Shown piece after piece: positions 1 to 7,580 of a DNA stretch of 60,996 nucleotides. The stretch's first letter is position 1. Each line of letters starts with the position of its first letter. The stretch comes from Candidatus Omnitrophota bacterium (GTDB taxonomy: Bacteria; Omnitrophota; Gorgyraeia; Gygaellales; Profunditerraquicolaceae): the NCBI GenBank assembly GCA_028710405.1, contig JAQTUD010000001.1, positions 1 through 60,996 on the forward strand, given 5' to 3'. The translations under genes and the position numbers were made by a program. The notes under the pieces were generated by a model that was given only the letters and a program-made list of their open reading frames with translations, had not been told where the DNA came from and made no database searches.

Positions 1-105
1 TATCCCGGAGCTTCCTTTGGATAGGGCCTGCCAGAATTCATCTTTGCCTATTCCGTTGGGGGCGATCACTCCTATCCCCGTGATGACTACGCGTTTTTCA
101 TCCAT
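1..105 (-). CDS. fabF: beta-ketoacyl-ACP synthase II-like (FabF), first 35 codons only; runs off the window edge
   Basis: Reverse-strand ATG at 105, 2 nt after the fabG stop. The translation MDEKRVVITGIGVIAPNGIGKDEFWQALSKGSSGI has the typical KAS N-terminus (RVVITG.G...P.G). Confidence 0.7.
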   Translation of the reverse strand, partial: MDEKRVVITGIGVIAPNGIGKDEFWQALSKGSSGI

Positions 106-107
106 AT

Positions 108-854
108 TTAAACCAGGCTCATCCCTCCGTCAATAATAATGGTCTGGCCGGTAATATAGCTTGAGGCATTACTTAATAAGAATTTAACTGTTTTAGCCAC
201 ATCCTGGCTCTTGCCAAAGCGCGCCAGAGGAATATTGCGGATAATCTCGTCTTTATATTCCTGCTTTAACCCCTGGGTCATATCGGTATCAATAAAACCC
301 GGGGCAACGGCATTAACCCGGATATTATAAGGCGCTAATTCCTGGGCCAGCGACCTGGTAAATCCGATTATCCCGGCCTTAGAGGCGGCATAATTAGACT
401 GCCGGGGCATACCGGTAACTCCGGTTACCGAAGTAATATTGACGATATCCCCTTTTTTCTGCTTGATAAATGTTATTACTGCCGCGCGGGTAAGGTTAAA
501 CGCGCCGCCTAAATTGGTGTTTATTACTTCGTGCCAATCATCCGGGCTCATCAAGGCCAAGGCCTTATCTCTGATGATGCCGGCGTTATTTACCAGAATA
601 TCTAATCCGCCGAAGGTTGCCTTTGTCTCTTCTACCCAAACAGATACCGCCGCGAAATCCTTGATATCTACCTGCGTGGCTTTTGCTTTTACGTCCAGGG
701 CTGCCAGTTCCGCTTCCAGGCTCTCTGCCTCTGCCTGGCTTTTTAGATAATTAAAAGCGATATTGCATCCTTGTTTAGCTAATTCCAGGGCTATTGCCCT
801 GCCAATACCCCTGCTTGCCCCGCTGATTATTGCGGTCTTGTCTTTAAGCAACAT
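108..854 (-). CDS. fabG: 3-oxoacyl-ACP reductase (SDR family)
   Basis: 248 aa. Contains the SDR glycine motif ISGASRGIGRAIA, NNAG, and the catalytic YAASKAG (Y-x3-K). Confidence 0.9.
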   Translation of the reverse strand: MLLKDKTAIISGASRGIGRAIALELAKQGCNIAFNYLKSQAEAESLEAELAALDVKAKATQVDIKDFAAVSVWVEETKATFGGLDILVNNAGIIRDKALALMSPDDWHEVINTNLGGAFNLTRAAVITFIKQKKGDIVNITSVTGVTGMPRQSNYAASKAGIIGFTRSLAQELAPYNIRVNAVAPGFIDTDMTQGLKQEYKDEIIRNIPLARFGKSQDVAKTVKFLLSNASSYITGQTIIIDGGMSLV

Positions 855-1224
855 TTAATTTCCCCTTAATGGCTTCTAAAAATTGTTGGGTGTCAAAGGG
901 CTTAAATATATAATCACTCACCCCTAATTTCAGGGCTTCTTTATATTTTTCTTGGTCGGCATGTCCGGTTATGATGATCTCCGGTATAGGCTGCCTACCC
1001 GCGTCTTTCTGGAGCTGGCGCAGCCTTTGAATAGTTTCAATTCCGTCTATCTCCGGCATCCTGATATCGCTGATGATCAGGTCAAAACTAAAGGCCTTAA
1101 GTTTTTCCATCGCCTCCGAGGCCCCGGAGGCGATTACCGCGTTATAGCCTTCCTTAGTTAGTAATTTACGCAGGCTCTTGGTTACCAACCCTTCATCATC
1201 AATAACTAAAATGTTTTTCGGCAT
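844..1224 (-). CDS. receiver-only (CheY-like) response regulator
   Basis: 126 aa. Has VIDDEG acidic residues, the phospho-Asp context DLIISDIRMPEIDG, and a conserved K in IFKPF. No output domain. Confidence 0.9.
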   Translation of the reverse strand: MPKNILVIDDEGLVTKSLRKLLTKEGYNAVIASGASEAMEKLKAFSFDLIISDIRMPEIDGIETIQRLRQLQKDAGRQPIPEIIITGHADQEKYKEALKLGVSDYIFKPFDTQQFLEAIKGKLNVA

Positions 1225-1237
1225 CTTAGCGCCCCCT

Positions 1238-1603
1238 TTACAGGTAATGGTTGATACGCTCCAGGAATTCCTTGCTATCCAGGGGCTTTAATATCACTTC
1301 CCCTAATTTTTCAGCTTCAAGGTTTGCCTGATTATCGGCGTATCCGGTAATAAAGATCACCGGGATATCCGCCTTATTTTTAGATCTTAAAATCTCTTTT
1401 ATCCTTTTTACGGTCTCTACTCCGTCTATACCGGGCATTTTTATATCTACCACGATCAGGTCCACATGCATACCCTTTATCTTATCTATGGCGTCATAGC
1501 CGCTATTCTCCGGGGTGGCTGATAATCCGGTTTTATTCAGCAGCGCGCAGAGGGACTTGGTCACTAAACCGTCATCGTCAATGACTAAGATATTCTTTGG
1601 CAT
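1238..1603 (-). CDS. receiver-only (CheY-like) response regulator
   Basis: 121 aa. Has VIDDDG, DLIVVDIKMPGIDG and LKPL. No output domain. Its start overlaps the kinase stop by 1 nt. Confidence 0.9.
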   Translation of the reverse strand: MPKNILVIDDDGLVTKSLCALLNKTGLSATPENSGYDAIDKIKGMHVDLIVVDIKMPGIDGVETVKRIKEILRSKNKADIPVIFITGYADNQANLEAEKLGEVILKPLDSKEFLERINHYL

Positions 1604-6649: not shown

Positions 6650-7235
6650 ATATCATCTCCCTGATTGTATTCCTGATCTGGAAAATCCCATCTTCTAGAT
6701 ACAGGTCGTCAACAATATCCTCGAATTCCTTAAATAAGTACTTAGGTCTGCCGATCTTTATCTTTATCTGCCGCAAGCGCGGGAATTTGGCCCCGCGCGG
6801 AAGGGCTTCATATGCCCCCAGGATAGAGCAAGGGACGATAGGCCTGCCGGTTTTTAAGGCCAGAAGTGCGGCGCCTCGCCTAAATTCCCCTACTTTGCCG
6901 TCAAAACTACGCCGGCCTTCCGGGAATAAACCGACATTTTTATTCTCCATCAATAAAAAAACTGCCTTTTCGGAAGAATTCCCCGCCGCCGGCAGCGTAT
7001 CGGTCTTTTGCATGAACCATTTAGTGATAAGTCTTTTATAAAAATGCTTCCAGGCTATCCAGTAGACTTTCTGAGGAATCGCCGCCCCCACTACAAAGGG
7101 GTCAAGGTAGCTGGAGTGATTAGCGACTATTATAAAGTTGCTTTTTTTCGGGATATTCTCCAGCCCCTCTACTTTAAGCCGGAAGAATACCTTTAGGATT
7201 ACCAGTGATATTCCCCTGAAGACCCAGTACCACAT
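6639..7235 (-). CDS. PlsC-family (lysophospholipid/glycerol-phosphate) acyltransferase
   Basis: 198 aa. Has the H-x4-D motif NHSSYLDP and the FPEGRRS motif. Its 3' end overlaps the next gene start by 11 nt. Confidence 0.85.
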   Translation of the reverse strand: MWYWVFRGISLVILKVFFRLKVEGLENIPKKSNFIIVANHSSYLDPFVVGAAIPQKVYWIAWKHFYKRLITKWFMQKTDTLPAAGNSSEKAVFLLMENKNVGLFPEGRRSFDGKVGEFRRGAALLALKTGRPIVPCSILGAYEALPRGAKFPRLRQIKIKIGRPKYLFKEFEDIVDDLYLEDGIFQIRNTIREMIYAG

Positions 7236-7252
7236 AGATTACTTGCCCTTTC

Positions 7253-7471
7253 TTAATCCCTAAATAAGTTGCCGCTCTCTTTACCGCCGGAGTGATACAC
7301 TGATTTCTCTCTTATCCATCTCTCGATGTATTTCTTGTGGAATCTCCAATCTGTGCCAATCTTAAACGCGGGGATCTTGCCTTCGCGCGCGTATTTATGC
7401 ACAGTCAAAGGATGAATGTTGAGATATTCAGCCACCTCCTTTGAAGTCAGAATCTCCTTTTCCTTTTTCAT
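7253..7471 (-). CDS. small excisionase-family/MerR-like helix-turn-helix DNA-binding protein
   Basis: The ORF-track start was trimmed to ATG 7471 (MKKEKEILTSKEVAEYL...), which follows AAGGAG. The HTH is LTSKEVAEYLNIHPLTVHKYAREGKIPAFKIG..WRF. Confidence 0.75.
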   Translation of the reverse strand: MKKEKEILTSKEVAEYLNIHPLTVHKYAREGKIPAFKIGTDWRFHKKYIERWIREKSVYHSGGKESGNLFRD

Positions 7472-7551
7472 ACCACACTCCTTACCCACAAGGGTACACC
7501 GGCGCAATACCACATAAGCGCGGGGTGTTAGACATATCTACGATAATCATA

Positions 7552-7580
7552 TATATACTAGCAAAATCAAGCCTTGTCAA
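7552..7580 (-). promoter_or_regulatory. sigma70-like promoter for the lipid-type operon
   Basis: Minus strand reads TTGACA (7580-7575), a 17-nt spacer, then TATATA (7557-7552). It lies just downstream of a terminator and ~80 nt upstream of the HTH gene. Confidence 0.5.

Follow-up and report, generated by a model that had tools for sequence, protein, structure and literature searches.

A START-fused acyl-ACP reductase-like protein and its partner 7TM-GAF kinase in a candidate lipid-making and lipid-sensing module of Omnitrophota

Nine genes occupy positions 1-7580 of a 60,996-nt stretch of contig JAQTUD010000001.1 (GenBank assembly GCA_028710405.1, Candidatus Omnitrophota bacterium); the whole stretch is referred to here as the window. 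All nine lie on the minus strand, co-directional and tightly packed, and in gene order they encode a small helix-turn-helix (HTH) protein, an LPLAT/PlsC-family acyltransferase, a fusion of a START/SRPBCC domain with an acyl-ACP reductase (AAR; ACP, acyl carrier protein)-like domain, a short GMC flavoprotein, a 7TM-GAF histidine kinase, two receiver-only regulators, a FabG-type ketoreductase and a truncated ketosynthase (KS). An initial annotation had read the locus as a specialised lipid operon with a two-component system embedded in it. The order of the nine genes and their domain calls were all borne out by Pfam and NCBIfam searches. The junctions computed from the coordinates, in gene order a gap of 17 nt, an overlap of 11, a gap of 5, overlaps of 4 and 1, a gap of 13, an overlap of 11 and a gap of 2, match exactly the overlaps of 1-11 nt and gaps of 2-17 nt given earlier. 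What would such a set of acyl-chain enzymes make, and to what would the kinase among them respond? Our preferred answer, held tentatively and with somewhat less than even confidence, is an Omnitrophota-wide module that would both make and sense a fatty-aldehyde-derived, lipid-like molecule.

Gene neighbourhoods were compared in three long contigs and in 80 metagenome loci obtained by an alignment-based scan with the reductase. They were annotated by open reading frame (ORF) calling, BLAST against reference proteins and Pfam spot checks; the denominators of the counts given below (47, 61, 45 and 29) vary with the subset of the 80 loci.

The START-AAR fusion protein and its conserved partners

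The third gene defines the module. In Pfam and NCBIfam searches its product was divided into a Polyketide_cyc/SRPBCC domain (residues 9-146) and an AAR-like domain (residues 166-498). The latter matched TIGR04058 from position 2 to 336 of the 339 in the profile (181.6 bits, E 2.4e-53). As this score is below the equivalog cut-off of 449.7 bits, the protein is a member of the AAR superfamily and not an equivalog. The AAR structure 6jzq matched residues 166-498 with an E value of 9e-38 at 29% identity through the entire catalytic domain; a further match was to the N-terminal domain of PigE (E 5.6e-48 in NCBIfam, 6e-28 in PDB). Cys456 was aligned to the catalytic Cys294 of the S. elongatus AAR (the C294S mutant structure is 6jzz), and this cysteine is kept in 77 of the 80 related loci. 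The nucleotide motif GGTGDIG, corresponding to the NADPH-binding Rossmann pattern GxTGDIG, lies at residues 323-329; of its seven positions, five never vary and the remaining two are kept in 79/80 loci. In L044, L054 and L060 an otherwise full-length START-AAR carries Ser, Pro or Asn at the position of the catalytic Cys, and these could be inactive variants or assembly errors.

A structural model obtained with AlphaFold2 (AF2; pLDDT 79.9, pTM 0.68, flexible linker at residues 148-163) was compared with known structures using Foldseek. It matched the AAR structures 6jzq and 6jzu with target-normalised template modelling (TM) scores of 0.79-0.83 and an E value of about 1e-22. The N-terminal domain matched the START protein TTHA0849 (2d4r) with a TM score of 0.90, followed by polyketide cyclases and abscisic acid receptors; by sequence the same domain scored 54 bits with PF03364 and 39 bits with PF10604, and matched 2d4r with an E value of 4e-15. 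The profile matches and the predicted fold together indicate that the central protein is a genuine AAR superfamily member of a distinct subfamily, and that it is probably active. Its assignment to the AAR family in the initial annotation is thereby supported by sequence, predicted fold and active-site residues, and the profile search agrees at its sub-equivalog score.

Clustering of the family at 50% gave 2556 representatives. Of the 150 that score best, most are 340-380 aa long and stand alone, and the START-fused forms, of about 500-535 aa, gather at the top of the list. Almost all named homologues, whether from the window's clade or from a second one at 41-48% identity, carry the label Omnitrophota or Omnitrophica; one 3.4-kb contig of a metagenome-assembled genome (MAG) with a homologue is labelled Planctomycetales.

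The complete nine-gene order, including the GMC gene, recurs in L003 and L043, the core of it in dozens of loci, and L005 shares the flanking synteny of the window. The initial annotation had named two computational results that would speak against it, a cluster found as a unit in no relative and a central protein falling outside the AAR family. The cluster is conserved as a unit, and the profile search places the protein within the family. From the linkage counts given below, the conserved core consists of the HTH gene, the LPLAT gene, START-AAR, an optional tailoring enzyme, the 7TM-GAF kinase and at least one receiver; the GMC and FabG/KS genes are accessories of the module. A search of the literature on Omnitrophota together with AAR, lipids, quorum sensing or HisKA_7TM found no description of it. 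The START-AAR fusion, the obligate pairing with a 7TM-GAF kinase and the variation of slot and sensor described below appear new; the families of the parts are known.

The LPLAT gene lies directly upstream of the reductase in 37 of 61 loci. In the window the last 11 nt of this gene are also the first 11 nt of the reductase gene, and relatives keep an overlap of 8-14 nt. The translation contains the HX4D motif as NHSSYLD, and the top NCBIfam match is the acyltransferase domain of acyl-ACP--phospholipid O-acyltransferase. An HTH_17 gene is found upstream of the module in 28 of 45 loci. In the window its start is most likely the ATG at 7471 (72 aa, with AAGGAG six nt upstream), judged from the sequence, rather than the GTG at 7513.

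Between the HTH_17 and LPLAT genes an extra stand-alone AAR-like gene of about 335 aa is present in L012, L013, L015, L017, L018 (8404-9411), L024, L027, L030, L033, L038 and L041-L044; the window lacks it. As a second active reductase it was rejected: the L018 copy has Ser in place of the catalytic Cys and a degenerate nucleotide motif, and the copies elsewhere fit neither the Cys nor the nucleotide motif pattern. From these substitutions, the proteins are probably pseudoenzymes or scaffolds.

The sensor kinase and the variable enzyme slot

The kinase has a membrane domain of about 8-9 transmembrane segments and an H-box, HEINNPL, at His508. Regarded at first as part of an embedded extra, the two-component system turned out to be the partner most consistently found with the reductase. 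Of the 47 loci with sufficient sequence, 45 have a kinase of at least 600 aa that begins no more than 3.2 kb downstream of the reductase. The reductase and kinase genes are direct neighbours in 23 loci; the kinase lies behind GMC in 6 and behind a short-chain dehydrogenase/reductase (SDR), with or without a formyltransferase, in 9; radical-SAM (SAM, S-adenosylmethionine) genes lie between reductase and kinase in at least two further loci (L018 and L038). The two receivers of the window are 49% identical to each other by tblastn.

The only loci without a kinase after the reductase are L056, L058 and L082. In L058 the reductase is followed by a PilZ protein, a protein of about 230 aa of no named family and a radical-SAM enzyme, with a 2516-aa ORF upstream. 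The ORF sizes of L082 match these (2478 aa upstream), and L056 has both small ORFs, its contig ending before the third.

The sensor portion of the kinase was compared with its other parts in 47 loci, using the identities of the reductase, of the kinase core (last 250 aa) and of the sensor half (transmembrane region plus GAF). Sensor classes were taken from global alignments with average linkage; BLAST single linkage had merged all sensors. Reductase identity is 66% within the sensor class of the window, 64% within class 4 and 64% between these two classes, and kinase-core identity is similarly 65%, 62% and 63%. In contrast, sensor-half identity is 50% within the window's class, 48% within class 4 and 24% between them. 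Sensor class and accessory enzyme vary together: the window's class is carried by all six other GMC loci, as against 6 of 41 non-GMC loci (Fisher p = 8.6e-5, for loci that are not independent samples), and class 4 is found in 6 of 8 SDR/formyltransferase loci. A swap of first and second kinases between loci was considered as the source of the classes and rejected on the evidence of the methyltransferase-associated second kinases. Irrespective of the class of the first kinase, these group by themselves, at about 40% identity to the window's class.

Of 47 loci, 6 have GMC in the slot between reductase and kinase and 9 have an SDR, alone or together with a formyltransferase-like protein; elsewhere the slot holds radical-SAM or B12-radical-SAM enzymes, or nothing. 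The closest relative, L005 (75% identity), has an 879-aa SDR fusion in the slot, and all its flanking genes are 62-80% identical to those of the window. The C-terminal 549 aa of this fusion (L005:12562-14211) gave no Pfam match at E <= 0.001; the equivalent position in L007 is a separate Formyl_trans_N protein. The GMC gene had been treated initially as a fixed member of the pathway, which these occupancies do not bear out.

Pfam placed GMC_oxred_N (73.7 bits, cut-off 23), GMC_oxred_C (43.2 bits, cut-off 24.6) and Fer4 (23.8 bits, cut-off 21.1) in the GMC protein. It carries a CxxCxxCxxxC motif (CxxCGNCxxGC) which is kept in all Omnitrophota orthologues found, and its top PDB matches are the Fe-S catalytic subunits of FAD-glucose dehydrogenase (FAD-GDH) and fructose dehydrogenase. 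Cys152, Cys158 and Cys162 align with Cys212, Cys218 and Cys222 of FAD-GDH, which are 3Fe-4S ligands (PMC6719666). Of the catalytic residues, a His is found in AHPGGT, and a Pro seemingly stands at the second His/Asn position in an alignment judged by eye only. The Cys motif and the matches to Fe-S dehydrogenases suggest that the protein is a probable FAD and Fe-S dehydrogenase, and make an oxygen-independent dehydrogenase likelier than an oxidase. The flavoenzyme AGPS, with which it had been compared, belongs to a separate family (Pfam FAD_binding_4), and no family of that type was found among the Pfam, NCBIfam and PDB matches of the GMC protein. With a different flavoprotein family and a variable presence, the parallel to AGPS does not hold.

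GMC homologues also occur in other settings. In L088 (6222-12237) HTH_17, an aldehyde dehydrogenase (518 aa), GMC, a 7TM-GAF kinase and two receivers repeat the frame of the window, the aldehyde dehydrogenase standing where the window has LPLAT and START-AAR; an HD-GYP-like gene follows the receivers. In L090 the homologue lies with a FAR-like SDR, a methyltransferase and a 7TM kinase. In L089 (6034-9632) START-AAR (653 aa) and GMC (543 aa) are each fused to PilZ, with a FadL/Toluene_X outer-membrane channel just upstream and a 7TM kinase. The features of L088 and L089 point to links with cyclic di-GMP signalling and with the transport of hydrophobic compounds.

Among the collected loci, the gene immediately before each long 7TM kinase encodes an enzyme: START-AAR (31), SAM methyltransferases (11), GMC (8), SDR/formyltransferase (8), radical SAM (6), an ICMT-type methyltransferase (3), a 711-aa fusion (3), a GDSL hydrolase (1) or another histidine kinase (1). 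The 711-aa fusion (L018:17148-19283, also L017 and L075) joins SRPBCC/START, a LuxD-like acyltransferase (PF02273) and a SAM methyltransferase, with a 7TM-GAF kinase next to it. Fusion and kinase look like a second START-fused lipid-enzyme cassette, whose product is possibly a fatty acid methyl ester. Second cassettes carry thioesterases, a FabK-like NMO-family protein or KS-ACP-KS with a methyltransferase, followed by kinase and receiver. A thioesterase with a carboxyl methyltransferase would yield fatty acid methyl esters, the chemistry of the PhcB/PhcS signal system.

Acyl-chain genes and layout of the locus

The operon is cut at the end of the window. In relatives it continues, after the window stops, with KS1, an ACP, a FabZ/ApeI-like dehydratase, KS2 and sometimes KS3. 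The KS fragment of the window is 75% identical over 32 aa to KS1 of L003. In KS1 the Cys/His/His triad is changed to Tyr or Phe, Ala or Ser, and Glu in all eight relatives (8/8), the window fragment ending before the triad; KS2 and KS3 of the relatives keep it. KS1 of L003 scored 351.9 bits with the FabF equivalog TIGR03150, under the cut-off of 493.75 bits. From its sequence, KS1 in the relatives looks like a chain-length-factor-like protein and not a working FabF. A dedicated FabG/FabF pair had been proposed initially. The FabG part stands, above its cut-off; the FabF part does not, since the KS1 orthologues are triad-less and belong to a larger set, found in 11/29 loci.

The ACPs of the cluster fall under the AcpP equivalog cut-offs and share 31-36% identity with E. 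coli AcpP. The cluster of relatives lacks genes for enoyl reductase, FabD and FabH. The set of active KS, triad-less KS, ACP, ketoreductase (KR) and dehydratase (DH) was seen in relatives only, the window holding FabG and 35 codons of KS1. A housekeeping fatty acid synthase (FAS) operon is disfavoured by the triad-less KS1, the non-canonical ACP and the absence of FabD, FabH and enoyl reductase from the cluster. The gene complement matches instead the grammar of type II polyketide synthase (PKS)-like lipid systems, such as those for aryl polyenes and koreenceine, and would not be a spare FabG/FabF pair.

Some variants of this block were noted. PF05635 ('23S rRNA intervening sequence protein') genes stand at varied points in or after it (L003:20609-20968, L007:18435-18782). 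In L061 (16403-21559) reductase, two kinases and a receiver are followed by a type I PKS (KS-AT-ACP-KR-DH, where AT is acyltransferase; >1719 aa), which replaces the discrete KS, ACP and DH genes. In L072 and L073, of a distant clade, the second KS has Ser for the active-site Cys with both His kept (e.g. L073:17224-18468); after it come an ICMT-type membrane methyltransferase and a 796-aa kinase.

The features of the cluster and of its upstream boundary are collected in Table 1.

Table 1. Features at positions 1-7638 of the window, listed from its first letter onwards
Feature	Position	Strand	Evidence and remarks
Ketosynthase-family gene, first 35 codons	1..105	-	ATG at 105, cut by window end; KS1 orthologue
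3-Oxoacyl-ACP reductase, FabG-type ketoreductase	108..854	-	TIGR01830 307.1 bits, cut-off 297.75
Second receiver-only response regulator, 126 aa	844..1224	-	Response_reg 104.9 bits
Receiver-only response regulator, 121 aa	1238..1603	-	Response_reg 75.6 bits, no output domain
Histidine kinase, HisKA_7TM + GAF + HisKA + HATPase, 730 aa	1603..3795	-	Pfam
Short GMC flavoprotein, 427 aa, in the variable 'tailoring' slot	3792..5075	-	GMC_oxred_N, GMC_oxred_C, Fer4
SRPBCC/START + AAR-family thioester reductase fusion, 522 aa, module-defining gene	5081..6649	-	TIGR04058 + Polyketide_cyc
LPLAT/PlsC-family acyltransferase, 198 aa	6639..7235	-	Pfam Acyltransferase (PF01553) 89.6 bits
HTH_17 (excisionase/MerR-like) small DNA-binding protein, first gene	7253..7471	-	Pfam HTH_17 62.5 bits
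Sigma-70-like promoter: TTGACA (7580-7575), 17-nt spacer, TATATA (7557-7552)	7552..7580	-	Predicted, read from sequence
Intrinsic terminator of upstream operon (lipoyl-domain/LipB/Lpd/Mdh/Icd)	7585..7638	-	Hairpin -34.5 kcal/mol, z = -6.6 vs shuffles, then U8

The promoter sequence given in the initial annotation is present. It is missing from the list of a consensus scanner because the scanner demands T at position 6 of the -10 hexamer. A further promoter-like site lies in the 3' end of the kinase gene, before the receivers (1632-1659, minus strand; TTTACA, 16 nt, TAGAAT, with an upstream TG; 10/12 matches). It may serve as an internal promoter for the receivers, FabG and KS; sites of this type are not commoner here than in shuffled sequence. 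No Rfam match to a riboswitch or leader RNA was obtained on 1-9000 at E <= 0.1, and the base composition of the cluster is ordinary.

The terminator separates the cluster from the upstream operon. This operon, on the same strand directly upstream (7647-12431), encodes a lipoyl/biotinyl-domain protein, LipB, a dihydrolipoamide dehydrogenase-like protein, malate dehydrogenase, isocitrate dehydrogenase and an aconitase/LeuD-like small subunit, identified from ORF translations and the Pfam table of L005 only; the gene order is identical in L005. The remaining window consists of a ribosomal-protein/RNA-polymerase/elongation-factor superoperon and of tricarboxylic acid (TCA) cycle and lipoate genes, mostly on the same strand. 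No paralogues and no second cassette were found elsewhere in the window.

Possible roles of the module and comparison with known systems

With the kinase as the most conserved partner of the reductase, and with a sensor class that varies with the accessory enzyme, the reading moves from a bulk specialised lipid to a lipid that is made or taken up, and sensed. Substrate, direction of reaction, product, cue and output are proposed as follows. An acyl chain would be carried on an ACP from a dedicated or general acyl-ACP source. Where present, as here, the type II PKS/FAS-like set would build the chain, using FabG, an active and a triad-less KS as a heterodimer-type pair, the ACP and the FabZ-like dehydratase. 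The AAR-fold domain would take the chain onto Cys456 and reduce it with NAD(P)H to the fatty aldehyde, and the fused START/SRPBCC domain would hold this hydrophobic, reactive product. The translationally coupled LPLAT and the lineage-specific tailoring enzyme would then form the final compound; in the window the FAD/Fe-S GMC-type dehydrogenase could interconvert alcohol, aldehyde and acid states. The compound, or its level in the membrane, would be the cue for the membrane-embedded 7TM-GAF kinase, which would phosphorylate both receiver-only regulators, with the small HTH_17 protein as the likely transcriptional end of the circuit.

Several observations weigh against this scheme. Only 11 of 29 loci have FAS/PKS genes within 9 kb, and a dedicated acyl-ACP source is therefore not universal. 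L005 has the sensor class of the window with an SDR fusion and not GMC in its slot, and the covariation is therefore imperfect. The loci share kinship and were fished with the reductase as bait, which makes non-independent samples of all the counts as well as of those in the Fisher test. A kinase sensing the substrate of the pathway instead of its product predicts the same covariation of sensor and enzyme. Neither receiver carries an output domain, and their connection to HTH_17 is conjecture. Reductase identity is 62-75% within the window clade and still 41-48% to the most distant clade recovered; such conservation is unusual for a signal synthase and fits a housekeeping lipid role better.

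One such role would be a structural membrane-lipid pathway, in which the reductase feeds aldehyde or alcohol into an ether, wax or other bulk lipid assembled by the LPLAT, and the two-component system reads an external or membrane-physical cue, as DesK does, and not the product. The reductase is indeed phylum-wide and strongly conserved, and the cluster, of normal composition and in conserved synteny, follows ribosomal and TCA operons in a core region of the genome. The same role is favoured by the translational coupling of a glycerolipid-type acyltransferase to the reductase, by the nearness of FabG, the FabZ-like protein and KS2 to canonical FAS enzymes, and by the ether-lipid gene homologues, such as elbD, reported in Omnitrophota MAGs (PMC11868695). 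However, no AGPS, ADO, wax synthase or plasmalogen synthase homologue was seen among the annotated neighbours of the loci examined, and the flavoprotein is only an accessory (6/47 loci). A physical or environmental sensor should not change class with the tailoring enzyme while kinase core and enzyme remain equally conserved, and the same kinase type ends cassettes of quite different small-molecule enzymes. We therefore regard a bulk-lipid role as doubtful. The pathway could also run in the oxidative direction, as sense-and-salvage: an exogenous, possibly host-derived fatty alcohol or aldehyde would be bound by START, oxidised by GMC, converted to acyl-ACP by the AAR-fold domain acting as an acylating aldehyde dehydrogenase, and passed into phospholipid by an Aas-like LPLAT, with the kinase sensing the substrate. 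Oxidation of aldehyde to thioester with NAD(P)+ is thermodynamically favourable, as is generally known for CoA-acylating aldehyde dehydrogenases, and alcohols are the usual substrates oxidised by GMC enzymes. In NCBIfam the LPLAT is matched best by the acyltransferase domain of Aas, which is a salvage enzyme; GMC is paired with an aldehyde dehydrogenase in L088, a FadL/Toluene_X channel lies just upstream in L089, and the covariation of sensor and enzyme fits substrate sensing equally. Known members of the AAR family are nevertheless reductive, or proposed to be so, as release enzymes, and biosynthetic KS, chain-length-factor-like KS, ACP, KR and DH genes form part of the cluster. The FadL-like gene is not a conserved neighbour, and many loci have no oxidase at all. 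Salvage seems improbable.

Finally, the lipid and two-component genes might be mere neighbours in compact genomes, and the sensor classes a result of fast evolution or recombination. Most genes of the window are on one strand and tightly packed, sensor domains in general evolve faster than kinase cores, and the sampling was biased by the bait protein. Against this, the adjacency persists down to 41-48% reductase identity and across changes of all other neighbours, and enzyme genes are joined to the kinase gene by start/stop overlaps. The sensor classes are discrete rather than graded and associate non-randomly with the slot enzyme, and the order of enzyme then kinase recurs in independent cassettes. 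The absence of any functional coupling is considered very unlikely.

The module that makes and senses its own lipid could also be one case of something larger. In this extension, which is speculative and more doubtful than the module itself, a phylum-wide, modular family of lipid signals would exist, in which fatty-acyl enzyme sets, START-fused or stand-alone, make a hydrophobic aldehyde, alcohol or methyl ester, and a cognate HisKA_7TM kinase, with or without GAF, is the receptor, the sensor having co-diversified with the tailoring chemistry. One such set would be built around an AAR-like reductase, to which GMC, SDR or radical-SAM enzymes may be added; another would combine a methyltransferase with a thioesterase or a LuxD-like enzyme. 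If this is true, the family would be a new class of autoinducer or host sensing in uncultured, ultra-small, possibly host-dependent bacteria, and the cluster of the window would be its GMC-type member.

Omnitrophota are abundant and uncultured, and their lipids and signalling are almost undescribed; the module is among the most conserved lineage-specific gene sets of the phylum. Its three to five clonable genes offer a starting point for finding an Omnitrophota-specific lipid or signal. It extends the AAR family beyond cyanobacterial alkane and alkaloid pathways to a START-fused form, which could serve the production of fatty aldehydes or alcohols under anoxic conditions. The switching of sensor class with the accessory enzyme, the core remaining constant, would be a natural matched diversification of ligand-making enzyme and receptor, and would suggest a class of candidate ligands for the HisKA_7TM sensor domain, which is poorly understood. 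The labels "FabF" and "GMC oxidase" in Omnitrophota genomes are probably misleading.

Individual parts of the module were compared with systems in which similar proteins are known. The GMC protein was matched best by the catalytic subunits of the Burkholderia FAD-glucose dehydrogenase and the Gluconobacter fructose dehydrogenase, and three of its motif Cys align with the 3Fe-4S ligands of the former; unlike these enzymes, it is about 110 residues shorter, has a fourth Cys that gives a 4Fe-4S-type CxxCxxCxxxC, and lies without genes for a cytochrome or hitchhiker subunit. The kinase aligns end to end (residues 12-718) with PrsK (TIGR02916), the PEP-CTERM/exosortase kinase, and has the same multi-transmembrane, GAF, HisKA and HATPase architecture. 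It reaches 115 bits, however, against a cut-off of 300, and neither a PrsR-type sigma-54 regulator nor exosortase genes are present.

The ether-lipid logic of the initial annotation was upheld in one part, the LPLAT-family acyltransferase; an AGPS-type flavoenzyme or an ElbD-type FAR domain is not a constant part of the module. The FAR/GNPAT/AGPS and ElbD routes share with it a thioester reductase activity and an AGPAT/LPLAT-family acyltransferase. They differ in that the reductase here has the AAR fold and not FAR/NAD_binding_4, and the flavoprotein is an optional GMC protein with Fe-S and not AGPS; no alkyl-dihydroxyacetone-phosphate synthase homologue was found in the neighbourhoods. With the cyanobacterial AAR of the AAR/ADO alkane pathway (6JZQ/6JZU) the window protein shares the fold, the catalytic Cys and GxTGDIG. 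In contrast to it, the window protein has an N-terminal START/SRPBCC domain, has LPLAT and a sensor kinase as partners, and comes from anaerobic, non-photosynthetic Omnitrophota. The aldehyde-consuming ADO partner suggested by the cyanobacterial parallel did not appear, as no ferritin-like ADO gene was seen nearby among the annotated neighbours.

For the acyl-chain genes the aryl-polyene (APE) and related type II PKS-like lipid clusters offer a similar arrangement. An active and a triad-less KS, an ACP, a FabZ/ApeI-like dehydratase, a FabG-like KR, an LPLAT and the lack of an enoyl reductase are common to them and to the relatives studied here, in a comparison that had precomputed ApeI-like and ApeP-like Pfam hits as its only profiles. 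Aryl-starter enzymes, a glycosyltransferase, a LolA-like protein and an MMPL exporter were not seen here; the module also differs in its embedded two-component system and in a release that would be reductive, by the AAR-like enzyme. In PigE, of the pathway to the prodigiosin precursor MAP (PDB 4PPM), and in KecF an AAR-like (COG5322) domain occurs, as here, amid non-canonical type II KS, ACP, KR and DH genes. For the domain of KecF, a role in koreenceine biosynthesis has been proposed in which the chain leaves its ACP as an aldehyde (PMC6498172). Both proteins, however, join the AAR-like domain to an aminotransferase and serve the synthesis of an alkaloid, whereas here the fusion is with START, no aminotransferase is present and a two-component system lies in the operon.

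In its arrangement the module resembles the PhcB/PhcS/PhcR/PhcQ, CqsA/CqsS, LqsA/LqsS/LqsR and RpfF/RpfC systems, in which a lipid-modifying enzyme stands with a multi-pass kinase without a large periplasmic domain and with receivers; the arrangement alone is shared. No crotonase, AONS-like PLP or PhcB-type match was present in the Pfam and NCBIfam results for the window enzyme, to which no dedicated homology test against CqsA, RpfF or PhcB was added. Methyl 3-hydroxy fatty acids are the signal of the Phc system, and the cassettes of relatives with a thioesterase or LuxD-like enzyme and a methyltransferase, a kinase and a receiver recall PhcB/PhcS. The comparison with the Phc, Cqs, Lqs and Rpf systems draws on general knowledge and on PMC11960443 and PMC5391125. 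Unlike those systems, the module has a sensor of the HisKA_7TM-GAF type, and its conservation is phylum-wide where theirs is patchy.

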